A stretch of 64,000 nucleotides of DNA from Callorhinchus milii (GCF_018977255.1 NW_024704742.1:126854001-126918000), one strand, 5' to 3'. Positions 1,273 to 58,699 are shown, counted from the first letter of the stretch. Translations and numbers: made by a program. Notes: generated by a model not told the origin, from the sequence alone.

Positions 1273-4200
1273 TACATTGCATTTACAATTAAAACATGCA
1301 GTTTGTAGTTAATATGTACTACACTGAAAGATTTCCTGTGCATTTATAGGTTCTACGTTCTTAAAACACTTTGAGTTGTTACCCACCGTGAAAGGTGCTA
1401 CAGAAATTCAGGTGTTGTTAACCTTTTTCCTTTATGCATTAGTTTCCAGGTTGGTGGTAAGTAAAATGCAGGCTAGTTCACAGATGCTTGAAACAAAACT
1501 ACAGAAACACAGAAACCATAAATTAATCATTTCATAGATTCTAAGACAAAAAAATTATGTTTCAAAGTACAGTATTATGAGCTGGCTTGTAAATGAATCT
1601 TACTTACGATAGCTATATGGTTTCTGAAATATATAAATTTACACCATTCCTTAAAGGAGCAGAAAGATCAGTTAACCACTGCAATTATATTACAGATAAT
1701 CCACCAATTAAAAATACAGGACTAAAGAAAATGTAGATCAGGCGGTACAATTCATTGCAAGCAGAATAACATTCCTGCTTCTCCGCCAGTGTATGAGGAA
1801 CATTGTTAGGCCCTCTGGTTGCCTGATCCCATTCCCAGTGTCACCATGAATAGCAGCGAATACAATACGCTCCTTGTTAGGTCAGTTACTTAAGGTGATC
1901 TGGAAGGGTTGGAACCAGTTAAATTAAAGGGTGTGCTATGTCCTGAATAAAATCCTTTGAAAATAAAATATAATATACATCTGTATGATATACAGTTGAG
2001 GTAATAATTAAAAATGTGCTCACATACAAAGTGGTTTCTCTTGATTAATACATTATAATCCAAAGAACTTCATTCATTTTAATTCTGTCACAAATTAACT
2101 AATTGTTAAATTTACAGCAACATTAAATGCAGAAAAAGAGTTGCAAAGTACAAGAAGGCTATTTCTTAGCATCTGGTAAAATGCAGATGGAAGAAACTCC
2201 TTTGAGAGTATTTATTCTGGCTGAGTGCCGCAAAAACTAAGCAAAAAAATTACCTACCATGTCCTTACTTCTATCAATGTACGTCTTCATTAATGACCTA
2301 GGTTACCAGATTTCAAAGCAGAAATGTTCATTCCCCCTGAGGATGCATTGATAAAGCTTCTATGGTGCATCATTTTTTCTGTTAGATCATTAGTGAATCC
2401 AGCCTCACATCTGACTACCAGCCAGCTTCCCTGCCTTTCTCACATCATCATACTGTTAAAAATAAATGTTTAAATGTAAATTTCATCTGCCATCTGTCGT
2501 TCGGCAGCACTCCAAATATTGCCACACATTAAACTCTATTCATACATTTTGGAATTTTCTCTGAGCCAAGGAAGAAAAGTAATCACAATGACCAATATAC
2601 AAACTACTCATAGCATGGAGTGTAAAGGTTTGTTGATAGAATTTTTTAAAAAATTGGTCAAGTAGTTCAAATATATTTTGATTTAATAATGCACAAACAT
2701 TTTTAAACATCTCTGATATTGGGAATGTTGGATATAGACCAGAAATTATTAAACAGTTGCTGGTATTGAATGTCCCCTGGGGTTATTAAGTGGGTTTGGA
2801 TCTGCTGCAATATGCCTGATAAACTGAATGGAGCCACTTTAGCTACTCCTAATGATAAGCATCTCTGGCTGGCCTTGTGCTGAGAAAATGAGTCACAAGG
2901 ACTATGTTAAAACAACGATTATACTCTTCTACAGAAAACTGAGAATTGTTTTGTTTTACACCAAAAGTACACCAGCGAGACTTGCTTTCCCCATTAAAAG
3001 AGAAATGCAAGTTAAAGGAGAAATCCTGAGAATGCTAACTGATCCACTGATAATCTGTGCAAATTACTTTGTTGAAAGAAAAGTTGATAAAGAGTTGGAG
3101 TAAGCAAGAGCGGGGCAAGAGGCAGGCAGTGAGCAGCTGAGAAACAGAAAAAGTATGGAATTCAGAGGCACTGAAAGAGCAAGAAGGCACAGATAGTTTG
3201 TGTATGTGTGGCCTGCTGACAAATCTGGGCTATCTTGGCTCAAATTTAGAAAGTGTCCACTTGGCGAGGTATCAAAGGGCTGTTCGCATCATAGGGACCA
3301 TACCCCAGCAGGCATCAGTGCTCAGGAGCCAGGAGAGGGGCAGTCATTTTAAATGAGCAAAGAATGCTGTGAGCAAATTCTTTACCTAAAGTCAGACTGC
3401 ACCATTGAGATACTTATAGAAGCTCACAAGCTGGTTTAGTTCATAAAACTACATCTTAAAGTGAAAGTCAACTCCATGAAATTCCTGGTTCATACCCTTC
3501 TCTGTTCTGAGTTAGCTGCTCTCATCTGGATCAACTCAACTAAAGAGGGAAAAATCAGGTTGTGTATCCATTTCTGAGATCTATGCAGTGGACAATGCTC
3601 AGAAGTTCACATGGATGGAGACTGGTTGAAGACAGGATTATGTTTGGCTGTGTTACCCCATCTCCATTTAAACAACTTTCCTTCTGACCGACTCATGGCT
3701 TTGACAACTGAACAAGGTAGTGGAAAATATCTGGGATAAAAACCCAGCATGAGTTTGTACCTTTAGGTGAGGGAGAGTGAAGGAAATTAGAGGCAAGTAA
3801 GTGAACCGAACACAATCTTTTTTAAATAAAGGATCAGATTTTGGAAGGCGGATTTTGTTCCTTTAGCTCATTACTAAAGCTTCCCTTTATCACAAAATCA
3901 TTCTTGAATAGTCAACAGGAGTCTGAAAACCATATCATTTCATGAAGATCGAGATTCTAGGTGCCAATATTAAACAATTTACAATAATATTCCTTGCATT
4001 TGATGTAGTGCCTTATCACGTCTTCGAGACATCTCAAAGCACCTCACAGAATAAACTGTAAAGTAAATTGACTATCTTGTACAGCCTCATGCTGAGTTTT
4101 CTTACAGGCTTGTGAATCTTTGACTTAACTGGAAATAGTCAAGTAGCCTTACAATCTTACTTTCTGGTGGTAAAATGGACATGACAAGAGTTAATGCCAA

Positions 4201-4987
4201 ACAAGCAGTACAAGCTGACACGGCACTTGGAGTATCATTTACAGTTCTGCACCTTGCCTGTAAGCCAAGAACAGTCTGAAGTTTTAAATAATGATACACA
4301 GTGCCAACTGGGTTTACTGTGGATTTAAACCCCTTTCTTTTGCTTTATTCTCAGTTTGCTGTGAAGGTAACAGTTTCTCTGGGTGCAGCTTTAAAACTGC
4401 TCCAATATATTATTTATCCCTTCACCTTATGTCTTCTACCGTTGCCTTCAAAACCCTCTTAAAGAAACTTATTTTTTTTGACCGTGCCTTTGCTGAACAC
4501 CTTCAAAGTCCACCTCTATGGCAATCCCCATCTCTTTTATAAAGCGTTTCATGACATTCATTTTCCGTGGATGGTGGTGAATAATTGCAAGTTATTATAT
4601 AATTTTTCAAACTCAAGTAAAAAAAATCCAAGTGCTTAAATGATACACAAGGTATAACTATAGCTATTGTGCTACATCCCTGGTGTAAGTGATTAATAAA
4701 ATTCCAATAGAATCTTCATCTTAAAATTTTTAAAGCACAAACTTGGGGTAGTATTGCCTGAACCTCCTAGAATTTAATCTGCGTCTAACTGAAATCACAA
4801 CTGAATATAAATGACAATGCATTTATCCGCCACGGCTCATTAACATAGCCCAAAAGCATGCTGTTTTGTCGATACACAGAGACTTGGGAACTAAAAATAG
4901 ACATACCTGTCAAGTTTTTTTTTCTTTCAATACATTTGAACTGTCCATGTCATGATAGACATCGCTCATGGTTGACTCATCTCCAAC

Positions 4988-9416: not shown

Positions 9417-9507
9417 CTCTCGGATCTGCATTCTAACTTTGTTGATAGCTCGAATCCAGCGTGCTCGAGCAGGAGGGAATGGGGGAGCTTCATCTACATC
9501 ATTGTAG
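9417..9507 (-). CDS. UNC13B: UNC13B calmodulin-binding exon (YNDVDEAPPFPPARARWIRAINKVRMQIRE)
   Basis: Acceptor ttgtttgtctAG, donor GAG|GTAGGA; phase 2 to 0; W-x3-I-x2-V 1-5-8 CaM motif of Munc13-1/ubMunc13-2. Confidence 0.95.
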
Positions 9508-12009: not shown

Positions 12010-12342
12010 CTGTCAAGTGGTTTTGCAATCACCTCCAGCTGCTGGGAGATACTGTCGCAGGGAATTTCTGGTAAAACTTCATTCAATTTCTCATCTTTTT
12101 CTAAATCTTCACAAAGTTCAGCTTTCTCGCATTCACTCAAGTTCTCCTGCTCTTCATCGTGGCTGTTGTGCCATTCCTGTGTGTTTGGCCTTAAAGTTCC
12201 TGAGCCTTTAAAGGACTCTCGATCACACCTGTCCTCTGCCTCAGACCCATGGATGCTCTCATTGTCACGGTCAAGTTCACTAAGTTGAGAGCTGCCTTGG
12301 CTGAGGTTTCCTGACGAGCCATATCTGCTACTTCCTGTTGGG
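12010..12342 (-). CDS. UNC13B: UNC13B coding exon ([25 protein letters not shown]...KPLD)
   Basis: Within ORF 12006..12497; acceptor tttgtctacAG, donor AG|GTGAGT; 333 nt, phase 2 to 2; matches recalled ubMunc13-2 [24 protein letters not shown]. Confidence 0.95.
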
Positions 12343-13120
12343 CTGTAGACAAAATCAGAAAGTTTAGCTACTAACTCAAAGCTGTTGCACCAAAGCTTAC
12401 ATGTATAGTGCATAGCAGTCATTAATAATCGGTAGTTTAGCAGTACTTGAATATGATATTTTGCAGCCAATGTATTTGACCCCAATTTGCAAACCATTCT
12501 GAATCATTTTCTCATACATGTTCCAAAAAACATCAATTGCCTATCCATCAGAAACATTTTGTGCAAGTAAATTTTAGGTTTGATTCAAGAATTCCTGGCT
12601 TGTTCAATAATGTAGACTGTTATGCATACATACATAAACCTTAGTTAACTCAATTTTTTGTTTTGGTTCCTTTAATGATCATACTTCAGAGTATGTATTC
12701 AGTGGCATATATTAAGGAACGGTGACAAAACACAGCACCAAAAGCAGCAGGTGCTACTACACTTAGCACACTAAGGACAATACTGCCGCATGGTTACCTT
12801 CACAGAAAGCAAACTACAGCTAAAACTTCCACAAAGCACATTGTAAATGAACTGCACGTTTTGTATGTAAGACGTTTCAGTTGCATTAAATAGTAATTCA
12901 AATTATAGGTAATTAAACAGAGTCAGAGGACTGCCATAATGTTATGGCATAACGTAAGAAAAGTAGATATTTTAACAGGAATAACATACAAACAATTAAA
13001 ATGCAAGGAGAAAGGTTTCAAACAAAAAACACCAAACTACTTCAATATGCCTACTTTATAAATTGCATTATAAATGGTCAACCTACTGGTGCCATTTATC
13101 ATGCGTAAGCTAAGACTGGC

Positions 13121-16100
13121 CTTTTCGCATTCAAAAGGTCCGAACTCTTGAAAGCTTTCTGCTGTGATGCATGGTGGAGCTCTGGAGATAAGTAGGTCTC
13201 AGTGGAAACATCGGTTTCAGTCTCAGTTGTCTTCTCCAAATGTATAGTAACTTCTTCAGATGGCTCCTTTGCATGTAATTCTGAAGCTATTATCTCAGAA
13301 CTACTTTGAAGAGCAGCAATTGAGGCAGTCTCTAGACTTCCTGACAAAAGATTAGCCTGATCATTCAGGGAACTGCTCTGACTTTTGTTTTCAACACTAC
13401 CTACCTTTTCAGACTCTCCTACAATGACCTTATCTGTTAATATACTGCTTTCACTTTTGGTATCTATACTGTGACTAAAGTCTGGAATGGCGTGAGAACT
13501 CTGTCCACTATCATCTCTTGCTACAGGTTGTTTTGTGACTACTGTATGCTCTTGTTTAGCAGCGCTCTCTTTCTGCCAAGGAAAGTGGTCCAGTTTTCCA
13601 AAGACAGATCCCTGTGTGGAATCCTGTGCTTGGCCATTCTCTGCATCAAAAAATGTCTTGGAAAATTTCTTAAAACTAGATAACAAACCAGTTTCCCTGG
13701 ATGGGTCGCTCATAGGAGATGGTTGCTGTGAAAATAAACTGAATGGCTTGCCACTTTCTCGGGAAGACAAAAAACTGAATTTAGATGTAGCAATGCTGGG
13801 AATTTCAAAAACAGATTTCGTCGTCCCATAATCAGCCTTCTGTGGAGTTTTATTTGTTAGTGAGCCATAAGAGGCTGGTCCATCCAAAACCTTGGAATTC
13901 ATTTGCAAAGTGGGTTGATCATTTAGAAGATCTTCAGACTTAACATCTAGCACTAATTCTTGACTGGAACTTCCCAGCTGTGAAATGTCTCCACTTGCTG
14001 CATCAGGAATAAACACATTATCAGGAACATCTTCCACCTCTTCACTTTGCTGTGCATCCGAAACAAGAAAACCTTCACCTGCAACTAAAATATCTGGGTC
14101 TTCTGGCTCCATTGTGTTGCTGGGCATTACTTGACTTGTATCTTCAGTATTGACTGATTCGTTTTCAAGGACTTGGACATCAGTGCTTTCGTAGTCACAT
14201 TGGGTATTATTTTCAATGTAATAATTTTCTGATTCCTGCTCTGATAAAGTGCCAGCAATATTACTGTGAGAAACATCAATAGGCATTTCTTCGATTGTTT
14301 TGAGTGGGTCACCTATACTTTGAGAATTGTTACAAACTTCAAATGTATCAGCTTCTTTTTGCACGAAAGAGGTTTCTAAATTTGCAGCTGGATTAGTTTT
14401 TTCAGCAGGTACCTTAAAAAGGCTAAACAAATCAGGTTTTACAGATGGCATCTGGCTATTATTGTGCGACAAGTTAAAAAAAGTGCTTCTTGGTTGAGCA
14501 CTTGGTCCTGAACTTGAGTTTGCAAACAGTGATGGAAACGAAGTGGTTGAGGTTTTCATAGATTCACTCCCACTGCTAGAAAATAACTTCACTTTTGTCA
14601 TAAAGCCCGAAAACACTTCCATTGAGGAGCCTATTAAAGACTTTTCACCTTCAGACAACTTCTCCCTTGCTTTAAAATCAGTCAGTCCATCAACAGTTGG
14701 GGTTTTCGGAGATTCACACTTTTCATTTAACAAGTTGTTGGATGTATCCACTTGAGAATATTGCGGTTCTGAAACAATCCCTCTTTCTACAACAATCTCA
14801 TCCGAATTGTTTTTCATCTCAATCCCCAAGTCAGAGGCTTCTATATCAGTCTCTTCTGCCAAATTTGGGAGATAGGTTTCAACTTCTGTAGTCCAGGCTT
14901 CATCTGTGTCTGTAGCATTAGCAGGGAAACTATTCTCAGTGTTGTAATCAACGTCAATGTAATCTGCTGTAGGACTCTCATCAATATCAATGTGTTCTGT
15001 AATAGGTCTCTCATCAATATCAATGTGATCTGCTGTCACACTCTCATCAATGTCAATGTGATCTGCTGTAGGACTCTCATCAATGTCAATGTGACCTGCT
15101 GTCAGATTTTCATCCAAAATGTTTTCTGCGGAAACACAGTCCCTAGTATCAACATTATAAACATCATGATGACATGGTACATCTGGGATACTTCTGCTTT
15201 CCATGGGATCTGAATACATGAAGTTTTTAGTAGCAATGATACCTCTATCACAAACATTGTTGGCTATTTTAACTTCACCATTTTCATTAGTTGTCAACGA
15301 ACTTTGCAAAGTGGGTGCACCTAAATCATTATTGTTATAAGTTAAAGGGACCTTTTCCTGCAGAACTGATGTTATTATGTCCACCTCTGGTACACCTTTC
15401 CTGTCTTCACTGCCAGGATCTCTCAAACTGCCAGCAGATAACACATCTCTCTGCCTTGCAAACAAGCCAGCATTATTTTCAGTGGATTCTGAGCAACTTT
15501 GCTTGGAAGGCTCTGGTTTTGTCCTTTTCTCATCCTGAAATGTCAAGTTCAAGAAACTAAAGCTGGAGCTGCTTTCCTTTGGTTTTCTCTCCTCAGCTGG
15601 AGGAGTGGATGAGAAGAACGACGGTAATTTGAAAAATCCTTCTGAGCTGCCTGTCTGCCTAGCTCCAGGAAATGATGCATTACGACTAGGGGTTTGGGTC
15701 TGACTTGCTTGGTCTGTCCCACTGAAGAAAGAAAATAGGCCTTTGTTTGTTCCCTGTTGTTTGGAACTTGAGACATTTGGAAGTTTCCAATCTCCTGCTC
15801 CAAAGGGTAAACTAAAGAGACTGGATTGTTTGGGTTTTTGCTCCTGTTTTCCTGCCTTTGATGGAGAAGCAAATCCACCAGTTTGATTTTCACCACCTCC
15901 TTGAACCTTCGTAGAAACCTGGGAATTAACGTTTTCTGAACTAAACTTATTATCCCAAACTGTGACTGTGGATTTCTTTCTAATATTTTGCTTTACGATG
16001 GGATCAGAAAACTCTGTTGTGGTGATATTTTGTGCAGCATTTATTTCAGTCCCAGGAGGGAGTTCAGTATAGTGCACAGTAGATTCATTGATTACAATTC

Positions 16101-19100
16101 CACCAGTATTTGGGGCAGATCTATTTTGATGCATAGAGGTTTTTTCTGCCTTATCCAAAGCACTTTGCACATTTACTGAGGTTATATCATTTGTTTCATC
16201 CACTGAAGGCACCATTTTAATTTCAGTAGTTTCAAAACCAATATTTGGTTCTCTTAGTGTTCGTTGCTTTTGCAAACTCTTTGACCTTGAGCATGGCACC
16301 TCAGGTCTTAAGGAAGCCAGAAGAGCATTCTCACGTTCGTTCTGCTTGGTGTTATCATGCACAATTTGTTCTGCAAATGGTAGCTTACTTTTATTTTCAT
16401 TCTTACTTGAATTCATTGCATGCTCTGGATGTTGAATTGGATCCATTCTGAAGAATCCTCCAATTGAGCCAAAGAGGGATGAGATGCCAGAAGGCTGTCT
16501 TTCTACATTAGGAACAGATTTCCCAAAATTGTTCTGCTCCTTTTCAAGTGTTTCGTTTACTCTCGACGGAAAAGTCAAGCCTGAAGAATTCTGCTCTTCT
16601 TTGGCACTGGCACTTTTAAAAATGTCAAAGAAACTAGAACTTCGAGTTCCCTCGCTTTTTGATTGAGTCTGACTTTCGGACATGTTAAAAAGTTTGAGAG
16701 GACTTTTGAAGAACGAGTCCTGTGTCGTCGAAGTGGGAATGTGAGGTGCAGTAGGCTGAGAAGATATCAGAGGTGGTTTGGCACTAGCATTAGATTTACT
16801 TTGATTTATCTTTGACATCCCCTCAGGTAATGGCTGCAACACACTTTCAGCTGAGGCCTCGGGATGTGGTAAGTGAGAGTGCAAAGAAGATGACCTAGCC
16901 ACATCTTGATCTGGTAATTTGCGTCTCTGATCAACAACAGATGGTTCGTCATCTGAAACACTTATTGTACTCTTCAAGTGACTGGACATTGATATTAAAC
17001 TTTTTAAACCAGATGCAAATATATTACTTGGTGTGTCATCTTGTGAAGTAATTGAAGGCTGTCTATCCCTAGCATTAGGCTTAGTCTTATCCAGATCATT
17101 TCTTAATAAAGGAGTGGTATCATTGGTCATGTCCATTGTGCTCTTTGATGGGGTGACTGGTGCCGAGTCTGCTAAAGCAGAATTAGAATCCACAGAACTT
17201 TCAACATTTTGTTTTCCAACAAGATCACCCAATGAAGAAAAGAAAGATGTTATCTTTTTGATAGGCTGTTGGTGCTCTTCAGGTTGCTTGATTTCAGAGG
17301 TCTTCTGTGTTGAAGAATCTGATAACTTAACAGAAGAACGAAACAGACTAAACAGTCCTGATGAGGTTGGCACTGATGTCATTTTTGGCTGCGATGTTGT
17401 AGTTGCATAATCTGAGATTTCATTTGCTAGTGTTGTCCTAGATTTAGATTGTTTCTGAGCTGACTGACTACCTGCGACGATTCGAAGATCAAAGGCAGTA
17501 TTCTGAAGTTCTCCGTGAAAATGTTCCATTTGTTCTTCAGAAGAAAAATCCATCCTAAGTTTTTTCAGCCTGCATGTTTTGTACTTTGACGAAAAATCAA
17601 GTGGTTCATCCCTATTCCATTCTATCGACTCTTCAAACAGTTGTGAAAAAGAATCTAAATTCTTCCTTACAAACTGGTCATTCCTTCCCCAAACCAGAGA
17701 AAGATCAAGAGGTCCATCGTCCATTTCAGATTCAATCTGCTCTTCTTCACTGTACCAGAACAAATCAAAATCATTTGAAATGGGCACCTTAAAACCACAT
17801 ACGGAAACCATGTCCTCTCCCAGTCCTACATCGCATTCACCATTCAATTGCCGATAATACTCCCACTCTTCCTGCTCTTCATCTGTCTCTGGTCTCCAAA
17901 CGTACACGTATTGGCCATTGGCATCAGTGAGCAAGGAATATATGTATTCACCATCGCTGTACATGTAGTAGCCATATTCCCCATCTTCTGAAGGCCACCA
18001 TAAGCCATTTTCAAGTAAAGTAAGCCAGTCTTGGTACTCCTGATACCCGCTGATAGAAAATTGATTTTCCCTTTCAGTCATTAATTCTTGTTCATTCGGA
18101 ATAAGCCAAGAAATTGCATTGCCAGAAGAGGAACTTAGATCCATTGGCATTTCAAGACAGGAATCAACAGTTCCATTGAGTTCTAACGAATTCCAATATC
18201 TCTCTAAAGTTTTGCTCAGGTTTTCTTCAGCAGAATTTGCATAATATGAAAATGACCTATAGGAATCACCTGATGCTACACTAAAGTCTAAACACTCAGG
18301 TTCCATAATGTTTTCAGTCCTATTGAAAAATAAATAGCTGCCATCTTCTGGATTAATGACCTCCTTGTTAGATAAATTTATAATATTACACATTTCTGTC
18401 CTGTTGCTCAACTCTCCATATGAAGCCTGGAAGGCATCACAAGCTGCAGTAGAAGCATCTGTCCAGATCAGATTGGAATCTTCTTGAGAATAAAATTCAC
18501 TGAATGCTTCAGTTTTTAATCCTGATTCAAACCGAATTAATTCTGGGTAACTTTGGAATGAATGTGGAGATGAATATATCGATGCTGCATCATTTATTGG
18601 TAATGAATGATATTCAGCCATATCGCTATATGAAGAATTCCAAGGAACCTTGTGTGCTTGTGCTCCGGTTGTAATTTGCTTGGGCCATTCTTGAAATTCC
18701 TGAGGAACATTTTTACAGTATTTTGTCAAAGCTTTAGCCTGCCAAGTACTCGATGCTGCAGGTACATCATTTGGACTCGAATTCTGCACAATATGAGAAA
18801 CTTTTTTCTCATATCGTTTGTCATTTCTGCTTTCTGACATGAGTGGCTGCTTTGAAGGCCACATTGATTGTGTCTGTTTATCAGTGTTCTCCTTCAATTC
18901 AGTTTGCTCATTACTGTCCTTTGGTTTGGAAGTAAAATGTTTAAACAAATTGAAGGAGGACGTTTCTTCATTCTTGTTCTCTGGTGTATTGACAGATTTT
19001 GTGAAAAACGAAGATAAATGATTGCCTTCACTTTGGATCTCATTTCTTGCTTTGCTGGCATCATCACTTTTATTCATGAATTTAAGAAAACCTAAAGGAC

Positions 19101-22100
19101 TGTCATTCTTACTCGTCTCCTCTGATTTCCTCGTTGCTGAATTGAATAAGCCTGAGAAAAATCCTGGCTGGTTGCTGTTTTCTTTATCATTCTCAGGTAT
19201 CTGGTTTGGTTTTACTGCCTCACTTTTATTTCCCAATTCTTCATTTTGTGCTACAACATTTTGATGAGATGAAATTAATGAAATATTTGACAAAGTTGAA
19301 CTTTTATTTATCTCACTTTCTTGCACTGCTCTCTCTATTTTATCTGGATGCTCTTGGTTGCCTACATCTTGTTTTAATAAGGATACATTTTCAGTTGAGG
19401 ATAACTTAAACAAGCCTGAAAGGAATCCTTGGTTTCCATGAATGATTTGTTGTGTGTCGGGAATACTGCTGTACTTTGTTTTTGCACTTCCTGATACGTG
19501 CCTTGGTTCTACAACATCGTGACAAGAGGGAGATTTTGTTGCATCTACAAATAGTACTGGTTTGTTTCGATCTTTTTGCACAACTGATGCATTCACCATT
19601 TTACCTGAATCTTCTTTATCACTCAATTCTTCCTTAGATGTGGACAGGCTTCCACTGGAAGAAAATTTAAGCAGGCTCGAGAAAAAACCTTGCTGGCTAC
19701 TATTTTGTTTGGCTTTTTCAGTAGTAACCTGTTTTTCAGTAGTACCTTGTTTTTCAGTGCCTTTCTCTGGACTTGATGAAAACCTTAAAACACCAAACAA
19801 GCTACTCTGCTTACTTTCTTTTTGTTGTTCACCAGATGTTCTTACACTGTCTGACTGTTTGGCATTCGTTTCTTTTGTTGCAGATGTTCTTTCACCTGTA
19901 GGAAATTTGAACATTTCTGAAAACAGGCCACCCTCAGATTTTGCTTCTTTTGGTTTTTCGGAAGCAACATTTTCAGATGAAAAGAAGGGAAGTTTTAATT
20001 TTCCAACCAGAGAGAACGTTTGATCATCTTTCATCCTTTCTTTCCCAACTCGAATGTCCTCTGTAGATTTGTAAAAAGGAAATCTTGAGACACCTGCAGA
20101 AGGATCCTCCTTGGGCAGAGTACTATCTGATGAAGAAAGGATAATTTGGCTGAATGACTTTTTCAGAGGGTTGAAAAATCCAAAATTAATTCCAGAGTTG
20201 TCAGCACTGTCAGGCTTTGATTGGGAAGAGGATTCCATTTTATCAGAAGCTTTTATGTCTTGTACTACTTCAACACTTCCAACATGATGAGGCACCAGCG
20301 TTTTAGCAGCTTGCTCATCTTTACTTCCCTGTGCTAAAGTGGGTGAAGATTGAACAGTTTCTGATTTGCTGCCCAACCCAATTGCAAATCCTGACTGTTT
20401 ATCTGAAATAGCCCCTTTTTGCTGTTTACTACTTAAATTACTATTCTGCTGCAATGAAGTGTCATCACAATCATCTTGCAAAGCGACACTCATTTCATTA
20501 GAATCAAGCATTTTTTCAAATCTTGGTGAAACTTTTCTTTCTTCACAAGATGAATTCAAAGTATGCCCATGGGTATCAAGATTAGCAGAACTGTTGGCCT
20601 GAAGTTCAGAAGTTTTGTGTTCTTTGTTCTGCCCAGCAGGTTTGTGAGAATCCTGAGCAGAATCTTTCTCTGTGAAGAATTTTAAGGGATTCAATTTTCC
20701 CAGGACTGAATCAATGATTGTATTTTGTGATGAAGATGATGACTGGTTCTTCACAATGTCATAGTCATTATGAGGAGCCGGTTGTATAAGTGAAGTAAGA
20801 GCGGTATTAATGTCAGCTTTCTTCTGCTCCGATGTCTCAGAAGTATTGGATGTAACTGACTTGCTGGTGTCAGCTTCTAATGCTCCTGTAGACTGCAAAG
20901 AAAAAGTTCTTTCCGCTTTATCTTCCATAGATGAAGGTGATGTGAAACTCCTGGACATTGACTTCGGAGAAAACAATTTTACAAGACCAGGGACTTCCCT
21001 ACTCTTTTCATCTTCATTTTCAAGGGAAGTGGGAACCATTTTTTCCACAGAGGCTGAAGACTGTTTTTTATTTCCTCCTACTTTTTCACCTATTGAATTG
21101 AATAAAGACTGCATGGTATTCTTTACTCCAGTCAAGTCTGGAATAGGGTCTAGTTTTTGATCACTATCATCACAATTAACATTTATCGAAGAGCCTTTCG
21201 GTCTCCTTTGTCCTTCTTGTCTTCTTGGTTGAAGACAGTCACCACTGTCTTCAACACTGCAACGTTGCAGGGTCTCATTTTCTCCTTGGGACTTTCTGAA
21301 AGTTCTGTTGTGTCTCTTTGGAAGTGAACCAAACTTGCTCATTTCTTCTTCTTTTTCAGCCAAGTATTCAGATACAGACTCCACCAAACACTGAAGTTCA
21401 TCCATTGCATCAACATACTCCTCATTCATTTCCTCACCTTGAGAGGAATGCAACTTTCCTCTGAACTCAGATTCTTCATCAAGGTGATGATCGTAGCTGA
21501 GCTGGTACTTTTTCTGAGGGCCATGCATTCCACGAAGATCATGTTCCCTGTACTTAATGCAAGGAACGGTGCTTTCATGCCAGGACTGTCCCATTAATAT
21601 ATCTTCCTCTTGCTCATCGTCAGATCCAAATGAGCAGCGAAGTTCATCAGAGCCACTGCTATCATACTCACCACAGATTTCCCCTAGTATCCTTTTCTCC
21701 AGCATCTGCTCATCGTACACTTCCTCTAGGCATTCATCTATATCTATCATGTCATCAGGTTCATTATGGAGCAACTGATTTTCTCTCCACTCATTACTTT
21801 TCACCATAGATCCATGTTCATATCCATTTAGTTGCTGGTTATATTGCTCATCTACTCCGGAAATGTCATGACTATATAGTACAGGATCACTTTGATTACA
21901 TTTCTGACTTTTAGATTTGATTTCAGGAAGGCCACTAAGGACGCCTTGCTCTGCATCAAGACTTCTTGAAAGCATTTTCAATGTGCCATCCTCTAAACTA
22001 TTGTATCTGCATTTCTTTTTCCTCCTCCTATCTATCGTATTGTATTCTTCCGGATAACTAGAGTGGCTGGGAACATGCGATTGCCCAGTTAAGGACCGGT

Positions 22101-22336
22101 TACACCTCAATGAGTGTCGCGGTACTCTTTCTGCACGTTCCCTGCATTGCTGACTTTTTCTGATCGCACAGCTCTTCTTTGCAGTTTCTTCTTGCCAACT
22201 TCTTTGACTTTCGACTAAAAAGTTTTCAATGAGCAGTTTCCCTAACTTGTCATATTTATGTTCCCACTCTTCCTCCCCAACTCCAGAATCGACTGGTATA
22301 ATTCTAACTCTCTCTTTAAATGCTAAAGCTTTTTGG
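13121..22336 (-). CDS. UNC13B: Giant (~9.2 kb, ~3070 codon) coding exon of a long UNC13B isoform; Ser-rich, probably mostly disordered
   Basis: Stop-free ORF 13099..22110 extends in frame upstream (QKALAFKERVRIIPVDSGVGEEEWEHKYDKL...) to a phase-2 acceptor ccttaccaAG at 22337; lies between two UNC13B exons on the same strand. Both boundaries are inferred; 3' end is a GC donor at 13120 or a stop at 13099. Confidence 0.85.
14948..15105 (-). repeat. Coding minisatellite, ~5 x 33 bp (11 aa, TADHIDIDESP-like) inside the giant exon
   Basis: Repeating unit ...ctctcatcaatgtcaatgtgatctgctgt... visible in DNA and protein. Confidence 0.92.
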
Positions 22337-22696
22337 CTTGGTAAGGATCAAAGTTTGTGTAAAGGTGTAGAGAACAAAATGATTTGGAAACAAACAGAAA
22401 AGGGTAGGATAAACAAAAAAGAATCACATTGAAAATCTCAAATCAGTAGAGAACTGAGAACACAAAACTAAAATGACACACTAAAAAAAACAAACTCATA
22501 TCAGATAAATACATTTTGCTAGGGCTGATGAGTAAATTTTCACTGGTTTGGTTCTTTTGATTTAAAAGTAGTTGTACCCTAAACATAGACATAACATATA
22601 TGAAAACATTAAAGGCATGCAAACAGCTGCCAATGGCCTTCTTCACAGCACCACAGTACACGGTAACATCAAGGCTGTAAAGAGAGCAGAACCCAC

Positions 22697-22822
22697 CTAT
22701 CGGACAGATCTAGAGACTGCCTACTTTCGAGGGAGAACTGGCGGCTGGTTAGCTGACTAGACTCAGATGGAGACTCTAGATCACTACGACCATTCGCAGC
22801 AGAATCTACGCTATCATATCGT
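22697..22822 (-). CDS. UNC13B: 126-nt symmetric cassette exon (RYDSVDSAANGRSDLESPSESSQLTSRQFSLESRQSLDLSD)
   Basis: Within ORF 22669..22863; acceptor ttttccctaccAG, donor AG|GTGGGT; phase 2 to 2, compatible with both neighbours. Confidence 0.8.
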
Positions 22823-25166: not shown

Positions 25167-25383
25167 CTCATTTCTTTCCGATCGCAGTAATCAAGGTCAT
25201 AGTTTAGGTCAGTGTAGGGGTCCCTTGAGCCACCTTGGAGCTGTAATCGTGATTGAACTGGGAACTGATGAACAGATGCATTTGGCTGAGAGGTGGTGTG
25301 GTAAGGAGGTGGAATACTGTTGCTTGTCTCACTACGATAATCACTATCCCTATCATCAACAGCACTGTCTGGATCTTCAAGTG
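25167..25383 (-). CDS. UNC13B: UNC13B coding exon ([40 protein letters not shown]...DRKEM)
   Basis: Within ORF 25103..25435; acceptor ttctttttAG, donor AG|GTACGT; 217 nt, phase 1 to 2; highly conserved Munc13-1/2 motif. Confidence 0.96.
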
Positions 25384-40193: not shown

Positions 40194-43100
40194 ATGAGTT
40201 TATCAAAGAAGCAGAAAGTGGATCCTGAAGGCCGAATATTCAACAACAACAAGATTCCATTTATAGCGCGCCTTTCACGTCGGGAGGACGTCCCAAGGCG
40301 CTGTACAGTTGGGTCAGGACCCGAGCAGGGGGGAAATGGTCAGGGGGAGGGAAGGGAGGGAGCGAGGAGTGGGTAGAGAGTCGAGAGGGGAGCTGAAGGC
40401 ACGGTCAAAGAGAAAGGTCTTGAGACCAGCCTTGAAGGACGAAAGGGAGGAGGCGGCGAAGGCACTGGGGGATGGAGTTCCAGAGCCTAGGCGCTGAGAG
40501 GCTGAAGACCCGGCCACCGATGGTAGGGCGGTTGGGGCGGGGGATGTGGAACAGACCGGAGCCAGAGGAACGGAGGGTACGGGCAGGTAGGTAGGGGGAT
40601 AGTAGGTTGGAGAGGTAGGAGGGAGCAAGGCCGTGAATGGCCTTGTAGGTGAGGATGAGGATCTTGAAATCGATCCTCTGGGGGATGGGGAGCCAGTGGA
40701 GGCGAGCGAGGGTGGGAGTGATGTGGTCCCGAAGCCTGGTGCGGGACAGTACACGAGCTGCAGAGTTCTGAATGACCTGCAGCTTGTGGAGGGAGGTGCC
40801 GGGAAGGCCGGCGAGGAGAGAGTTCCCATAGTCCAGCCTTGAGGTGATAAAGGCGTGGACCTTTCAGCAACGTGAGGGGTGAGGTAGTGCCGTAGTCTGG
40901 CGACATTCCAGAGGTGATGGAAGGCGGTGCCAGTTGTGGCGCGGATATGAGGGAGAAAGGACAGCTCAGGGTCGAACAGAACCCCGAGGTTCGACTGGCT
41001 TTGAGAGGTGGAGAGTGCAGCCTTGGATGCTGATGCTGTCAGCGCCTGAGGTGCGGAGGCGCTGACGCGAGCCAATTAGGAGGGCCTCAGTTTTGCGCAC
41101 GTTGAGCTGAATAAAGTTGTCTCTCGTCCAGGACTCGATGTCAGACAGGCAGCTGTCAGGACATCGGTGGTCGTGGAGTTGAGGGTAGAGGAGGAAAGGT
41201 AGAGTTGGGTGTCATCCGCATACATGTGGAAGTTAACCCCATGTCTGCGGATGATGTCACCGAGGGGGAGCATATAGAGGGTGAAGAGGAGGGGACCGAG
41301 GACAGAGCCCTGAGGGACACCGCACGAGACAGTGCGGGGGCCGGAGGAAAAAACATTCGTGGAAACAAAGTGAAGACGGTGGGAGAGGTACGACCTAAAC
41401 CACTCAAGGACAGGGCCTTGAAGGTTGAGGTGGGAGGACATGCGGTGGAGGAGGATAGCATGGTCGACCATATCGAATGCTGCCGATAGGTCGAGGAGGA
41501 CGAGGAGGCAGAGGGAGCCTGGTCATAGATGGTCAGGATGTCATTGGTGAACTTGACCAGGAGTTTCTGTGCTATGGGCAGCACGGAAACCCGACTGAAG
41601 GGGTTCGAATAATGAATGGGTGGAGAGGAAAGAGCGCAGCTGGGAGGCGACAACTCATTCCAGGACCTTGGACAGGAAAGGGAGGTTGGAGATGGGCCGG
41701 AAGCTTGATAGCTGCGACGCATCAAGGGAGGGTTTTTTCAAGGTGGGAGTGATGGTGGCAGTTTTTAAGGGAATGGGAACAGAGCCAGAGGAGAGGGACA
41801 AAGAATGGACTTCTAAATATTTTTGTACCAGTGTGGGTGGAAAAGCTATGCGCTTAATTTGCAAAGAAAGTGTGGCAGCGTTCAAAGACTACAACTTGAA
41901 TCGTCATTTTGAGAGCAAACATGCTTGCAAATATAAGAACGTTTCTGCCGAAGAAAAAGAAAAGAAAGCTGATGAGACGGTTGTTCGATTGCAAAGAGAG
42001 CAAAGCATTTTCACAAAACAATTTGCATCCCAGGATGAGATTACAAGAGTGAGTTACGTGATTGCACACAAAATCGCCAAGAGCAGCAAACCATTCTCTG
42101 AAGGAGAATTTATAAAGGAATGTCTGGTTGACTCTGCCTTGATGTTATGCCCAGACAAGAAAAAACAGTTTGAGAACATTAGCTTGTCAACGCGAACTAT
42201 TGTGAGATGTGTCGAAGATATCTCTGAGAACCTGTATCTGCAGTTAAAAAATAAAGCAAGCAATGTTGCATGTTTTTCACTGGCACTCGATGAGAGTTGT
42301 GATGTCAAAGACACAGCCCAGTTGATAATTTTTATTCGAGGTATCACCAAACATTTTGAGCTCACAGAAGAATTGGTATCAATGCAGTCAATGAAAGATA
42401 CGACAACTGGAGAAGATTTTTGGAGGCAGTGAATAAGTGCATCTTAAAATTAGGGAGTGGAGTGGAAAAAATTGGTGAATGTGACCACCACCGATGGAAG
42501 CCCAAATCTGATAGGTAAAAATGTTGGGTTACTGAAAATAATTCAAGATCAAGTCAAAGAAATAAATCCAGAACAGAATATTGTTTTTCTACACTGCATT
42601 ATCCAGCAAGAGGTCCTCTGTAACAGTGTTCTAAAACTAAGCAATGTTGTGGAAAGTGGTCAACTACTATCGAGTAAGAGGATTAAACCACAGGCAGTTT
42701 GTAACTCTGCTTGAGGAATTGGAATCCGAGCACACAAATGTTCTGTATCACACAAATGTAAGATGGCTTAGTTTAGGAAAGGTCTTGAAAAGAGTGTGGG
42801 AACTAAGAGCAGAGACTGATTTATTTTTGGATATGTAACAAAAAAATTTGGATTTCCCACAGCTGAATGACGCGAATTGGCTCTCTGATTTCACATTTGC
42901 AACAGAAGGGGGCCTTTGTGTACGATTTGTATCGCAGTGTCATGTCATTTATGACAAAATTATTTCTTTTATCGTGTCAGATAGGAAACTTTCCAACTTT
43001 GCAGCAGATTACCGTTTGCGATCAAAGTCTTAAAAAGTATACTTCGTTACTACTTGACTTACATGCCGAAGTTTCTCGCCGATTCCAGGATTTCAATTTG

Positions 43101-43488
43101 ATCAAAAATGACCTGTCATTGGTCTCTTCACGTTTCTCATTTGATGTTGACAAAGCCCCATTTGACCTCCAACTCGAGCTTATTGACCTGCAATGTGATT
43201 CATTGCTTGCAGAGCAATTAAAATCAGTGCCGCTTCCCAGTTTTTACGCCTCTCTTAATGAATATACCATTCAAAAAATAAAGGCTCATGGCCAGAGGAT
43301 GCTTGTGCTGTTTGGATCAACATATATGCGAGGAGAAATTTTCTGTGATGAAATTCAATAAATCAAAACATAGATCTGCGATGACTGATGACCACCTTGC
43401 AGCAGTTCTCCACATTGCAACAACGGAGACGATTCCTGACTTCAATTGTCTGGTTAACTCACATCAGCGCTTTCATTCTTCTCATTGA
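40194..43488 (+). pseudogene. Disrupted hAT transposase (GTF2IRD2/Charlie-like)
   Basis: MSLSKKQKVDPEGRIFN, then L2 insertion, then KEWTSKYF...ICKE...NLNRHFESKH...FSLALDES.D...TTDG...LHCIIQQ...VRWLSLGKVLKR...FGSTY; several frameshifts and stops. Confidence 0.92.
40245..41799 (-). mobile_element. L2-clade LINE (family A), 5'-truncated 3' end, inserted in the hAT transposase
   Basis: [25 protein letters not shown] and [10 protein letters not shown] motifs; 3' hairpin and (TTG)n tail. Confidence 0.93.
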
Positions 43489-53340: not shown

Positions 53341-53819
53341 TTCTCTTTTTTGAATGGTACCCTTGGATCTTAAGCAAGCAATTGGGATTTGCTTTTAACA
53401 TCTCATCTGAAGCACTACACCTCCGACAACCTCAACATTGCACTGAACTGTCAGCTAAGATAATGAGCTCAAAAGCACAACTTTGCTTTTAAGACTAAAC
53501 CAATAACTTCAGTTGTTTCAAGAACCCAGTTCTGTAAAGTATACTGATGCAACATTAAACCATCAGTGGAGCATCACTTTTCTTTGCAATTAGTGAGTCA
53601 TACTTCATTTAATCACCCACGCAATAAAGTGTACAAAACTATGATAACCATGCTAATCAAAAGATGAGCACATTTGATGCCATCATAGCAAGATCTTTGT
53701 GACAGACATGGGATGCAAATAAAATTCCACTGTAGAGCTGCCACTTCCATCCCACAAGGTCATTTGTACTAAATACTCTGGGTTCCTCAGAAATACAAAG
53801 CACCACGGCATTTAGTGTT

Positions 53820-54530
53820 CAGAGGGTTTGGGTGTCCTTATACACCAGTCACAAATAGTATGCAGGTACAGCAACCAACTAGGAAGGCTAATGGCATGTT
53901 GGCCTTTATTGCAAAAGGGTTAGAATACGAGAGTAGGGAAGTCTTGCTGCAACTTTATAGGGCTTTGGTGAGACCGCACCTAGAATATTATGTGCAGTTT
54001 TCGTCTCCTTATTTAAGAAAGGACATACTTGCCTTTGAGGGGGTGCAGAGTAGATTCACTAGGTTACTTCCTGGGATGAGGGGATTGACCTATGAGGATA
54101 GGTTGAGTAAACTAGGCCTATATTCTCTAGAATATAGAAGAATTAGGGGTGATCTTATAGAAACATATAAGATTCTTATGGGGCTTGACAGAGTAGACAG
54201 TGTGAGACTGTTTCCCCTGGTAGGAGAACCTATAACTAGAGTCTTAAGATTAAGAGTCAGCCCTTTCGAACAGAGTTGAGGAAACACTTCTTCACTTAGA
54301 GGATAGTGAATTTATGGAATTCTCTACCCCAGAAGGCTGTAGATGCTCAGTCCTTGAACATATTCAAGACTGAGATTGATAGATTTCTAAAGGATAGAGT
54401 GATTAAAGGATATGGGGATAAGGTGGGCAGATGGAGTTAGGTTAAAAGATCAGCCATGATCTTATTGAATGGCGGGGCAGGCTCGAGGGGCCGAAGGCCT
54501 ACTCCTGCTCCTAATTCCTGTGTTCCTATA
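53820..54530 (+). mobile_element. CR1-clade LINE 3' fragment
   Basis: LQLYRALVRPHLEYYVQFSSPYLRKDI...RRIRGDLIETYKIL; CR1-type tail cctactcctgctcctaattcctgtgttcctat. Confidence 0.92.
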
Positions 54531-54545
54531 TTCCTATTGAATGTT

Positions 54546-57235
54546 AACAACAACAACAACAACTTGGATTTATATAGCGCCCTCCACGCCGGACGGCATC
54601 TCAGAGCGCTTCACAGTAACAAATCCCGGGGCCGAGCCAGAGGGAGGGGGAAGAAGGTGACCAAAGGCGCGGTCGAAAAGATAGTTCTTCAGAAGGGACC
54701 TGAAAGTAGGAAGAGAGGGAGCGAGGCGAAGGGAGTGAGGAAGGGAATTCCAGAGCCTCGGGGCATAGTGGCTGAAGGCACGGCCGCCGAGGGTGGAGCA
54801 GAGGACTCAGGGGATGAGGAGGAGGCCAGACCCGGAGGAACGAAAGCAACGGGTACTGTTTTGAGGAGAGAGGAGGTCAGAGAGGAAGGGGGGTGCAGAG
54901 GAGTGGAGGAATTTGAATACAAGGGTGAGAATCATGAAATCGATCTTCTCTGGGACAGGCAGCCAGTACAGTCTGGCAAGGACTGGGGTAATCGGAGAAC
55001 GTAGTTTGGTGCGGGTGAGAATGCGGGTGGCAGAATTTTGGATGATTTGGATTTTATGGATGGTGGTGGATGGGAGACCGGTGAGGAGGGCGTTAAAGTA
55101 GTCCAGCTGAGAGGTGACAAAGGCATGGACTAGGGTTTCAGCAGCCTTTGGAGAGAGGTATTTGCGGAGATGGGCGATGCGTTGGAGGTGGAAGAAAGTA
55201 GTGCTGGTGAGGGACCGGATGTGGGGGAGGAAGGATAATTTGGGATCGAACCTGACGCCAAGGTTGCGTACAGGTTCGGAGCGTTTTAGGGGTAGGTCGG
55301 GTAGCTGGAGGAGGTGAGAGCCGTGGGATTTGAGTCGTTGACGCGAGCCAAAGAGTATGGCTTCCGTCTTGTTGATGTTCAGTTGAAGGAAATTTGCGCT
55401 CATCCAGCCCCTGAGATCTGACAGGCAGGCTGACAGAACATCAGAGGACTGGGGATCGCAAAGAGAGGTGGAAAAATAGAGTTGGGTGTCGTTCGAGTAC
55501 ATGTGGAAATGTACCCCATGTCTGCAAATGACATCCTCAAGAGGGAGTATGTAGATCAGAAAGAGGAGAGGGCCAAGGATGGATCCTTGGGGTACCCCAC
55601 AGGTAACCGGGTGAGAGCGGGAGGAGAAGCCGTTTGTGCAGATGTACTCCTGGCAGTTCGTGAGGTAGGACTCGACCAGGCGAGTGCGGTCCCACTGAGG
55701 TGGATGACAGAGGAAAGGCGGTGGAGAAGGATGGCGTGGTCGACTGTGTCAAACGCCTCAGAGAGGTCCAGGAGGACAAGGAGGCAGAGGGAGCCCTGGT
55801 CACAGATAGAGAGGATGTCGTTTGTGACTTTCACAAGCGAAGTCTCTGTACTGTGGGCAGAGCGGAAACTGGATTGGAGGGGTTCGAAATGGAAGTGGGT
55901 GGAGAGGTGTGCGCGAAGTTGATTGACTAAAACGAGTTCTAAGACTTTAGCGAGGAAGGGCAGGTTAGAAATGGGGCGGTAGTGGTTGGGGTTTGAGGGA
56001 TCTAGGGAAGGTTTTTTGAGGAGGGGGCTGATGACAGCAGTTTGAGGGGGGCAGGGACTGATCCGGAGGTTGATGACTGGTTGATGACGTCAGCCAGTAG
56101 TGGGCAGAGGAGGGGGAGCTGGATGACCAGCAAGTTGGTGGGGAGGGGGTCGAGGCAGCAGGTGGTGGGTTTCATGGAGGTGATGCTGGGTGAGAGGGAG
56201 GAGGGAGAAATGGGGAGGAAGGAATGTAGGATGGAGGTGGTGGTAGGAGCAGATGATGGGGAGGGTAAGGGGTCAGAGGGGGGTTGGTGGTGGGTGACAA
56301 GAGGCAGTTGGATGAGGCTGCCTGGCGGATTTTGTGAATTTTAGATGAGAAGAAGTCCATGACCTCCTCGCACTTGGCATTGGATATGAAGATTGAGGAG
56401 GCCTGAGGGGGGGCAAGGAGGAGGCAGTGAGTGGTGGAAAAAAGGACTTTCGGGTTGTGTTTAGCCTCCAACACGAGGTTGGAGTAGAAGGCCGTTTTTG
56501 CGCGTCAGGGGGAGTTTAGGTGGAGGTTGAAATCGCCCATTATGAGCAGGCGCTCGGAGCAGAGGGACAGGGAAGAGAGTAGGGTGGAGGTGTCTGTATA
56601 ATAATAATAATAATAATCCTTGCATTTGATATAGCGCTTTTCACGTCGGGAGGACGTCCCAAAGCGCTTCACAGAACACACTGTAAAGTGAATTGACTGT
56701 ATATTTGTGGGCGAACGCGGCAGCCAATTGCGCACAGCAATGTCCCACAAACAGTCGTAGATTGAAAATGACCAATTTTATTATTGTTTTTTTTTTGGAG
56801 GGATTATTATTAGGCGTGTGGAGTAAGGAAACTTGCCCAAGGTTTCGCCCTGACTGGAATTGAACTCAGGTCTCTCGCTTGCAAAGCGAGTGCTCTAACC
56901 ACTGAGCTACAGGACTCCACATGGAAGGAGCCGGGGGGCTTAGGGGGGGCGATAGACCAGGAGGATTTTCAATGGGAGAGAGGGATAGAAGATGGTGAGG
57001 TGCTCGAAGGAGGGGAAGCAGCCAGAGGAATAGGGGTTAAGATCAACGGAGGCTTTGGAAATGAAGGCCACCCTGCCGCCACGTTGGTTTGGACGGGGGG
57101 TGTGGTGGAAGATGTAGTTTAATGGGGAGGCTTCCACTCGAGGGACGGGGTCATTGGGGGAGAGCCAGGTTTCGGTGAGCCCAAGAATGTCAGGATGAGG
57201 TTGTGGATGGTGAGGGCTTTATTTGTGAGAAAGCA
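54546..57235 (-). mobile_element. L2-clade LINE (family B), ORF2 remnant with APE endonuclease and RT, internally deleted and interrupted by a SINE
   Basis: LGLTETWL, LVYRPP and GDFNLH (APE); LLDLSEAFDTVDH and DTQLYFS (RT); (TTG)n tail at 54546. Confidence 0.92.
56598..56920 (-). mobile_element. Full-length tRNA-Ala(TGC)-headed SINE with Deu-like core and L2-derived tail, inserted in L2 family B
   Basis: Head GTGGAGTCCTGTAGCTCAGTGGTTAGAGC...TTGCAA...GAGTTCAATTCC (A/B boxes); core ctgtttgtgggacattgctgtgcgcaattggctgccgcgtt; (TTA)n tail. Confidence 0.92.
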
Positions 57236-58109
57236 TTGAAACAGCTACTCAGGCAACAAATTCACACTGGCACTTTTTTCTACATGAGCAAGCTAATCTA
57301 ATCCCATACTCCTACTTTCCCCACACATCCTTTACTTCCTCCTCTTGAAACATCGATTTAATTCACTTTAAATAATTTACAGACTATGGGGCAGAAATTC
57401 CACATTCTAAACATCTAACCTCCCTTTCAATTATATCTGTGATCTGATATTTGTGTCCTCATCACTGACTCATCAACCAGTGGAACCAATCTTTCACCCA
57501 TAAAATATACAGTCAATTCACTTTACAATGTATTCTGTGAAGCACTTTGGGAAGTCTTGAAGACGTGATAAGGCGCAATATTAAATGCAAGGATTATTAT
57601 TATTATCACTTTACACTATTAAACTTCCATCAAATCATTGGCTCCAATTTAGTTTCTCTTTTGAACTGCAACCCCTTCTTGCCTGGTAACAGCAAGTGAA
57701 TTTACAATGCATCTGTTGCATTGTTTTTACATCCTTCCTATAAAGAGTTGTCCAAACTGTACGTAACATCACAAGTGAGGTTTGGATGAAAAAGGCTATT
57801 TGGACCATGTAATCTCAGCCTTCCCACCCTACCAGGTTCCCACCACAACATTAAGCTACTGTGGCCTCAACCACTTTCCTTGTGACCTGTTCCAGTCATT
57901 AATTACCCTCTGAGTAAAGAAATACTTCCTGTTATCTACTCTAAATTGCCCTTTGCAACTTTAAACTTATGTTCTACTACCTTAGCGCATTCATTTCTCA
58001 ATCCCATTCAAAATTGTGTTCATATCTATGAGACATATTTCAAGATTGATGAGCCCCAGCTCGTCTAATCTTTTTTTTTAAAGTCCAATCTTTTGTTTGT
58101 CTACAAAAC

Positions 58110-58305
58110 GTGGAGTCCTGTAGCTCAGTGGTTAGAGCACTCGCTTTGCAAGCGAGAGACCTGAGTTCAATTCCAGGCAGAGGGCGAAACCTTGGGCAAG
58201 TTTCCTTACTCCACACAGAGCCTAATAATAATCCCTCCAAAAAACAAAAACAATAATTAAATTGGTCATTTTCAATCTACGACTGTTTGTGGGACATTGC
58301 TGTGC
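58110..58305 (+). mobile_element. Same SINE, 5' half (3'-truncated)
   Basis: gtggagtcctgtagctcagtggttagagcac...gggacattgctgtgc. Confidence 0.9.
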
Positions 58306-58699
58306 AATTAATTAATACAAAGAGCAAGAGTGGTCCAGGACAGACTACCTGAAATACACGCTTAACATTTGACCCAACTTCCCATCACAATGAGCCTCTG
58401 CCAACCAATCTGAATCCATGACCATGTCTTGCCCTTGATATCAGCTTGTGAAGGAATCCTCGACATGGTACTTTGTCCAATGTCTTTTGGAAGTCCAGAT
58501 ACACTATGTCATATAGCTTCCCACAGTCAATTTTGGTTGTCACCTTCTCTAAAAGTCAAAAGTTGGTCGTGCAAGATCTACAATTTGTAAGGCTATGGAG
58601 AAAGAGTGTGGGAGTGGGTCTAATAGGAAAGCTCTTTCAAAAAGCCGGCACAGACATGATAGGCCAACTGGCCGCTTTCTGATTCTGTGATCTACCCTT

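Follow-up and report, generated by a model that had tools for sequence, protein, structure and literature searches.

A giant retinal exon of UNC13B with conserved CtBP-type docking motifs as a likely ribbon anchor for Munc13-2

The 64,000-nucleotide (nt) stretch of the Callorhinchus milii genome analyzed here (GCF_018977255.1, NW_024704742.1:126854001-126918000; hereafter the window, with positions counted from its first letter) carries on its minus strand a giant exon of UNC13B, the gene encoding Munc13-2. This exon likely anchors an overlooked giant retinal form of Munc13-2 to the synaptic ribbon through docking motifs for RIBEYE/CtBP, since the motifs are conserved from shark to human and the exon is present in about 94% of mouse rod transcripts. 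The proposal addresses the question of how Munc13-2 reaches the active zones of photoreceptors, given that photoreceptor RIM2 is devoid of the Munc13-binding domain (PMC11536687).

A giant in-frame exon of UNC13B

A scan of the window for open reading frames (ORFs) revealed 3,082 codons in a single minus-strand frame (13099-22347). Full-length homologues place exons of the C2A region at 47407-47282, 34332-34249 and 25384-25167. On the downstream side, they place exons at 12342-12010 and 9507-9417. Because C2A exons lie upstream and further UNC13B exons downstream, we take the open frame to be a giant internal exon of this gene. The frame-preserving cassette exon is predicted to span 13121..22336 (minus strand; 9,216 nt, 3,072 codons); its acceptor would be the AG that precedes 22336, and its donor, of the GC type (AG/GCCAGT), would follow 13121, which keeps the frame with both neighbors. 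These boundaries are inferred, none of the splice joints listed entering the exon, and an in-frame test showed that the acceptors at 22309 and 22303, deeper inside the exon, would also keep the frame. Homologue mapping and run contigs both support the adjoining exons on the same strand, of 217 nt upstream (25167..25383) and 333 nt downstream (12010..12342; SPTGSSRY...). The next exon, ARARWIRAINKV (9417..9507, minus strand), which we take to be the calmodulin-binding segment, has 91 nt, the length of the mouse exon used below to fix orthology.

The exons on either side match UNC13B, and in homologues the giant exon is joined to C2A, C1 and MUN domains. In the human counterpart (NP_001358118, 4,340 amino acids, aa), residues 254-3002 (2,749 aa) are inserted relative to the 1,591-aa short form of the same gene, the ubMunc13-2 of about 1,590 aa, which aligns to residues 1-253 and 3003-4340 and has the same C2A start and the same C-terminal core. 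The three short isoforms checked (1,591-1,602 aa) contain no match to P.D[LF][ST]. A homologue search with aa 1280-1680 as the query returned 104 proteins, headed by sharks (57% and 49% identity) and continuing through reptiles, birds, gar, frogs and mammals, the named matches being UNC13B; in the organism's own genome, the motif block found itself as the single significant match. The exon and its frame are orthologous from shark to human, the frame being kept by the exon in mouse, human and C. milii and open in every lineage examined.

Docking motifs and their conservation

A preliminary description of the window had placed three PxDLS-type motifs in this region, and all three were confirmed, sharing a single minus-strand frame of the ORF: PMDLS at 18133..18147 (motif 1; aa 1401 of the ORF; human PIDLS, aa 1472), PLDLS at 17698..17712 (motif 2, the canonical CtBP motif; aa 1546; human aa 1609) and PLDFS at 17590..17604 (motif 3, non-canonical; aa 1582; human aa 1645). 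Motifs 1 and 2 follow the consensus P-x-D-L-S/T, from which motif 3 deviates, as does a fourth, looser site, AFDLR (17482..17496, minus strand), which appears in homologues as xLDLR, xIDLS or xVDLS with the D invariant in 34 aligned sequences. Strict P.DLS occurs twice in the ORF against 0.098 expected (P=0.004; 20,000 shuffles), and P[LMIV]D[LF]S, a pattern picked post hoc, occurs three times against 0.03 expected, a count reached in none of the 20,000 shuffles. The distance between motifs 2 and 3 is 31 residues in five of the six homologues measured and 30 in the remaining one, and a conserved, likely helical spacer, NLxxFSQxFEES (17626..17661, minus strand), lies between them. The RRT-type second CtBP motif had no match in the ORF with the patterns used.

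All 161 homologues could be anchored by BLAST. Motif 1 (P.DL[ST]) was found in 156 of them, the downstream PxDL[ST] (motif 2) also in 156 and PxD[FY][ST] (motif 3) in 153; 146 have the three motifs together, and 160 have at least one strict PxDL[ST]. Human has PIDLS, PLDLS and PLDFS, and the motifs of hamster and voles are identical or read PVDLS. The P, L, D and L of motif 2 are invariant across the 34 aligned sequences; its final S/T is missing in four frog sequences, and motif 1 is absent from one set of fish sequences. AFDLR is kept in 145 of 147 anchored homologues, 14 without a regular-expression anchor having been dropped. Identity is 0.23-0.37 in the 10-residue flanks but 0.91-1.00 in the motif columns, save for the second position of motif 1, which alternates between M, I and L.

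When all 5-mers of the exon were ranked by conservation in an 18-species panel (exon mean identity 0.22), PLDLS, PLDFS and PMDLS fell in the 99.9th, 99.8th and 99.1st percentiles, so that the motifs, being in the top 1% of exon 5-mers, passed the check across orthologous giant exons that the preliminary description had suggested. The two looser variants that it had noted nearby are where it put them, AFDLR holding up in the ranking (94.5th percentile) and CLDFS (18280..18294, minus strand; SLDLS in birds, lost in mammals) proving weak (76.6th). PIDVS, which it had listed as a relative of the cluster, was correctly positioned (14269..14283, minus strand) but lies outside the cluster and is conserved only at background (44.5th percentile), and was therefore dropped as noise. 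Another weak site, RMDFS (17542..17556, minus strand), corresponds to KVDFR or KVDLR in homologues, with the D conserved at 0.79 and the F at 0.67. Upstream of motif 1, an NL[SC]xK site (18364-18381, minus strand) is conserved as ALNLS in fish and VxNLCKKD in amniotes, and could be a further degenerate docking site.

Searching 1.84 billion representatives yielded 63 matches, of which 46 were new and divergent (38 complete, 5 partial, 3 unanchored). The nameable ones were fish and a snake; among the eight named of the ten new representatives looked up, no jawless-fish or invertebrate name was found. A strict motif is present in 33 of the 38 complete sequences, and motif 1 in 15. Variants include PVDLT, PMDLT, PIDLT, PINLT, PMNLT and PVDFS/T, as well as PVDLS at site 3 in one fish sequence (P0406), and substitutions are restricted to positions 2 (L/I/V/M), 3 (D/N) and 5 (S/T). 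An N at position 3 is tolerated by CtBP binding. Drift confined to the letters of the CtBP motif, with the flanks left free, is what would be expected of a short motif selected by a CtBP-type cleft. It is quite likely that the motifs bind the cleft of a CtBP-family protein. The resemblance to the PxDLS motifs of known CtBP partners (adenovirus E1A, Bassoon, nuclear co-repressors) extends to the consensus of motifs 1 and 2, the predicted disordered context and the expected substitutions, whereas motif 3 differs from them by the F at position 4, site 4 by the lack of P, and the host by being a cytoplasmic fusion factor and not a transcription factor.

Inclusion of the exon in retina and other tissues

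The mouse Unc13b gene has a cassette exon at chr4:43,169,968-43,178,334 (8,367 nt, 2,789 codons), located between exons of 235 and 315 nt and followed by one of 91 nt. As this order and these lengths match those of the window (217 nt, giant, 333 nt, 91 nt), and given the hamster, vole and human sequences, we consider it orthologous to the giant exon. According to the junction counts of ASCOT (PMC6952364, supplementary file 3), inclusion of the mouse exon is 94.0% in rods, 10.1% in olfactory neurons, 0 in brain and eight other organs, and at most 14.1% in all 36 non-rod samples measured, 37 of the 81 samples being measurable and 44 not. Inclusion in whole wild type mouse retina is 0.91-0.94 by a metric that counts exon-body reads and does not resolve bipolar cells (PMC4991804, supplementary file 3). 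The main texts of these two papers contain no mention of Unc13b. A Musashi-dependent Unc13b photoreceptor exon, also rod-enriched (82%, ASCOT, PMC6952364), was ruled out as a candidate for the giant exon: it has 39 nt, lies far downstream at chr4:43,254,307, and is a separate event from the giant exon, which persists in retina devoid of photoreceptors.

Structure predictions

An AlphaFold2 model of aa 1300-1636 (337 aa), built from 34 sequences, was of low confidence overall (mean predicted local distance difference test score, pLDDT, 47.6). Its only confident part (pLDDT 57-79) is a small folded module of aromatic and acidic character, in the order helix, four strands and helix, that lies between motifs 1 and 2 (aa 1432-1501; 17845..18054, minus strand). 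The motifs lie outside the module, at a pLDDT at or near 50 or below, which is low confidence and no proof of disorder, and the model predicts for them an accessible disordered context.

The preliminary description had also suggested a complex prediction, which was made with the shark CtBP2/RIBEYE B-domain (P0169, 612-948) and aa 1535-1595. The score was 0.49 against 0.00 for the best control, with a partner pLDDT of at least 42 and a contact agreement between runs of at least 72%. Scores up to 0.60 were obtained for 5 of 78 solved complexes and for all four of the mismatches that passed (of 180), peptides being outside this calibration, and the score may reflect memory because CtBP-PxDLS complexes have already been solved. 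The prediction is weak support for RIBEYE/CtBP docking and shifts the odds little.

The module, with the pattern W..LLE.G.WWPSEDG.YGYY.Y.DG.Y.YSLLTD..GQY.Y over 70 residues, is as conserved as the motifs and is a candidate for an unnamed domain. A Pfam scan produced one sub-threshold match (Gp34_trimer, E 0.03) and none for the whole ORF; a PDB sequence search gave no match, and the protein atlas no usable match. The fold search with the low-confidence 337-aa model reached a best Z of 4.0, with no Foldseek match at E<=0.001, a null that does not demonstrate a new fold since the module was not folded alone.

Amphipathic segments in the exon

Twelve amphipathic segments, F-rich and S/G/T-rich and resembling amphipathic lipid packing sensor (ALPS) motifs, are spread over 13648..21129 (minus strand), at 21129-21073, 19932-19900, 19692-19654, 19431-19396, 19161-19129, 17358-17323, 17268-17209, 17028-16987, 16641-16606, 16494-16444, 14634-14587 and 13695-13648. 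They have the sequence characters of ALPS motifs (bulky hydrophobic face, S/T/G-rich polar face, few charges), several of them with lysines. The same count in shuffles was 2.9 +/- 1.8 (maximum 8 of 200), by criteria of our own that were fixed after seeing the sequence; the excess was also found with four of five other threshold sets, the fifth giving 3 against a shuffle maximum of 4. All 15 homologues tested are enriched (8-23 against 0.7-3.6 in shuffles), the human insert having 12, and identity among homologues is 0.47 inside the segments and 0.20 outside. Their rate is 3.9 per 1,000 aa; in nine control sequences of RIBEYE, of which three are full length, it is 0.45. These segments and the folded module add to the features of the preliminary description.

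Proposed role at the ribbon

RIBEYE at retinal ribbons is probably the main partner of the motifs, and we infer binding, tethering and priming by the giant form as follows. Retinal splicing would add a stretch of some 2,750-3,070 residues, disordered for the most part, that separates the C2A region from the calmodulin/C1-C2B-MUN-C2C priming core. Through avidity, adjacent B-domain clefts of the RIBEYE lattice would then be engaged by three or four motifs, as they are by those of Piccolino, and the dozen amphipathic helices might hold small curved vesicles like the ALPS motif of Piccolino, although we propose their role as vesicle tethers tentatively. Priming of vesicles by the MUN core, which is in the same chain, would take place at the ribbon base or close to it, with no need for RIM. 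Photoreceptor and bipolar ribbons use ubMunc13-2, Munc13-2 is found at the ribbon base, and vesicles seem to undergo priming on the ribbon itself (PMC11536687). More speculatively, the Munc13-2 of rod ribbons, and probably of bipolar ones, might be a protein of about 480 kDa with a Piccolino-like scaffold, and not the textbook 190-kDa protein; combining PxDLS clamp, vesicle-holding helices and MUN core, it could supply the link, so far missing, that joins ribbon, tether and priming independently of RIM.

Piccolino provides the closest parallel. Its multiple PXDLS motifs, with spacers of about 25 and 45 residues, crosslink RIBEYE B filaments while clefts remain accessible (bioRxiv 2026.04.28.721253, the available text of which has no mention of Munc13); PVDLT of Piccolo is a RIBEYE-binding motif that needs the RIBEYE cleft (PMC10760060), and the ALPS motif of Piccolino binds vesicles (PMC13394108). 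Like Piccolino, the giant form would be very long, disordered, splice-generated and retinal, with several PXDLS-like motifs and ALPS-like helices, and its 31-residue spacer between motifs 2 and 3 is near the short spacer of Piccolino. The giant exon has three or four motifs versus seven in Piccolino, and about 12 amphipathic segments versus one described there; unlike in Piccolino, a folded module splits the cluster, leaving a gap of 130-140 residues, and the scaffold is inserted in a priming enzyme. No Piccolo homology was found among the named matches, all matches being UNC13-type or unnamed, nor was a second locus found in the own genome, a direct comparison with Piccolo not having been made; the relation claimed here is one of analogy, not of family membership.

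Several points weigh against ribbon anchoring by the giant form. The homologues were gathered with the motif region as the query, which favors conservation of that region, and just nine of the 38 complete divergent representatives have all three strict motifs. PLDFS is non-canonical, and no pairing of it with CtBP was found in the literature searched. Both the giant Munc13-2 protein and the binding of its motifs are predictions from sequence and splicing tables, and the evidence for mouse orthology consists of the order and lengths of the exons together with sequences from hamster, vole and human, not of a mouse protein. At the synapse, ubMunc13-2 was not seen to coat the ribbon but was located at its base, from which it spreads about 336 nm to the sides, and its size was still taken as ~190 kDa in that MINFLUX study (bioRxiv 2021.05.28.446138); the Munc13-2 knockout is mild, with the b-wave reduced by about 30% and membrane-associated vesicles unchanged (PMC11536687). 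Enrichment of the exon in ribbon-bearing cells, anticipated in the preliminary description, is borne out by mouse rods but not by cochlear hair cells, with an inclusion of only 1.3% (PMC6952364); hair cells are reported to be functional without Munc13 (PMC7660176). Conversely, human tissues devoid of ribbons include the exon (cerebellum 21-24%, skeletal muscle 11%, testis 4%; other human tissues at most 2.1%, in a table that has no retina column; PMC6952364). Inclusion is still 0.79-0.96 in the photoreceptor-less Aipl1-/- retina (PMC4991804), so the exon is not photoreceptor-specific. In C. milii itself, all four runs (X1-X4), presumed to be RNA of unspecified tissues, contain contigs that skip the exon, with no listed joint entering it; contigs cannot rank levels, and depth was consequently not used as expression. 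One 9,356-nt contig of X1 covers the giant exon and extends beyond both predicted splice sites.

In the literature searched (including PMC7948980 and PMC11292464), judged mostly from listings and with subscription journals and bioRxiv supplements outside the search, we came across neither a giant Munc13-2 nor its motifs, and the Munc13-2 splice forms listed in the available text of PMC11536687 and PMC7660176 are only the ub and the brain-specific ones. PxDLS motifs, ALPS motifs and Munc13 are already known, as are the isoform, present in RefSeq, and the exon, present in supplementary tables; the literature searched does not describe the combination of PxDLS, ALPS-like helices and Munc13 in one exon-bearing form, or the function proposed for it. 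With three or four five-residue sites in a single exon, ribbon docking would be cheap to test. If it is true, the 1,590-aa form was the wrong isoform for work on ribbon synapses, and in human, 8 kb of coding sequence become a candidate for variants in retinal and synaptic disease.

Alternative explanations

Bassoon and Piccolo are presynaptic anchors for CtBP1, and the motifs described here could likewise bind CtBP1, or soluble CtBP2, and not the ribbon lattice, the giant isoform then being a presynaptic or membrane anchor of CtBP1 in retina, cerebellum and muscle. CtBP1 is a live alternative partner because ribbon-less cerebellum and skeletal muscle include the exon. Moreover, the motif alone cannot separate the paralogues, the pass in the complex prediction does not specify a family member, the genome contains several CtBP-like loci, and CtBP1 also acts on ribbon condensates (bioRxiv 2026.04.28.721253). 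Nevertheless, inclusion is by far the highest in rods, where RIBEYE is most of the ribbon protein (PMC10760060), and the arrayed clefts of RIBEYE suit several motifs (bioRxiv 2026.04.28.721253). We therefore consider the CtBP1 explanation unlikely, and it can be compatible with anchoring at the ribbon. The CtBP-like loci are four (G000 C1:67.10 Mb, C7:24.01 Mb, C13:10.95 Mb and C945; L001-L003, L006, L007, L012), the C13 and C945 copies coming on top of the expected CTBP1 and CTBP2.

The conserved block could also form one surface that binds itself or some other partner, with the DL/DF repeats docking on the aromatic module or on an active-zone protein and the likeness to PxDLS being partly coincidental. 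The motifs do flank an equally conserved module without known fold (SLLTD 0.99, WWPSE 0.93), sites 3-5 frequently lack the P or have an F, and the spacing of motifs 2 and 3 is almost fixed. Yet the substitutions keep to the alphabet of the CtBP motif, even to PVDLS at site 3 in the fish sequence mentioned above; the AlphaFold2 model has no confident packing of the motifs on the module, and the weak complex score dropped to 0.00 upon replacement of CtBP, all of which makes this explanation improbable.

The functional product could also be a truncated isoform of C2A and the giant exon, which read-through would end at the stop at 13099, before the priming core; it would act purely as a ribbon scaffold or decoy, or as a nuclear CtBP partner. 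Read-through past the likely GC-AG donor gives KRPVLAYA-stop (13099-13125, minus strand), and 43 of the 161 homologous records end at most five residues from KR[PL]V, often in A-stop, eight of them starting at the C2A methionine; many such records, however, come from ORF calling on genomic contigs or from models in which a weak donor was possibly missed, and the donor sequence itself may explain KR[PL]V. A second, later end (43,178,928) appears among the downstream exon ends of the mouse retina table (PMC4991804), whereas the ASCOT value derives from splice-junction counts and the frame is kept in mouse, human and C. milii. The long X1 contig that passes both predicted splice sites fits truncation but is possibly unspliced RNA or DNA, and a basic cluster in the exon would fit the nuclear variant. 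Overall, we hold truncation to be very improbable. That the motifs are functionless chance matches is a negligible prospect: five-residue motifs arise readily in long, serine-rich disordered proteins, and PIDVS and CLDFS look like background, but the explanation is contradicted by the conservation data, with the three motifs in the top 1% from cartilaginous fish to human between variable flanks, and by the excess over shuffles and the frame open in every lineage examined.

Additional features of the exon and the window

Two other blocks of the giant exon are conserved: an acidic, helix-like block, DAMDELQCLVESVSEYLAEKEEE (21343..21411, minus strand), with 5-mers at 0.92-0.93 identity, and YxTIDRR with the basic cluster (22012..22044, minus strand), YxT[IL]DRR being present in 130 of 161 homologues and possibly constituting a short motif or nuclear signal. 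Five acidic 11-residue tandem repeats with an HIDID/YIDVD core lie at 14947-15093 (minus strand). On the 5' side of the giant exon, an alternative in-frame exon of 126 nt (22697..22822, minus strand) has joints only in X1, one of the four runs, which is also the run with the single contig spanning the entire giant exon. In the upstream introns, frames resembling LINE (long interspersed nuclear element) reverse-transcriptase fragments at 40300-42000 and 53700-60000, and pieces of a DNA-transposase-like frame at 41599-43361, were noted as such by eye.

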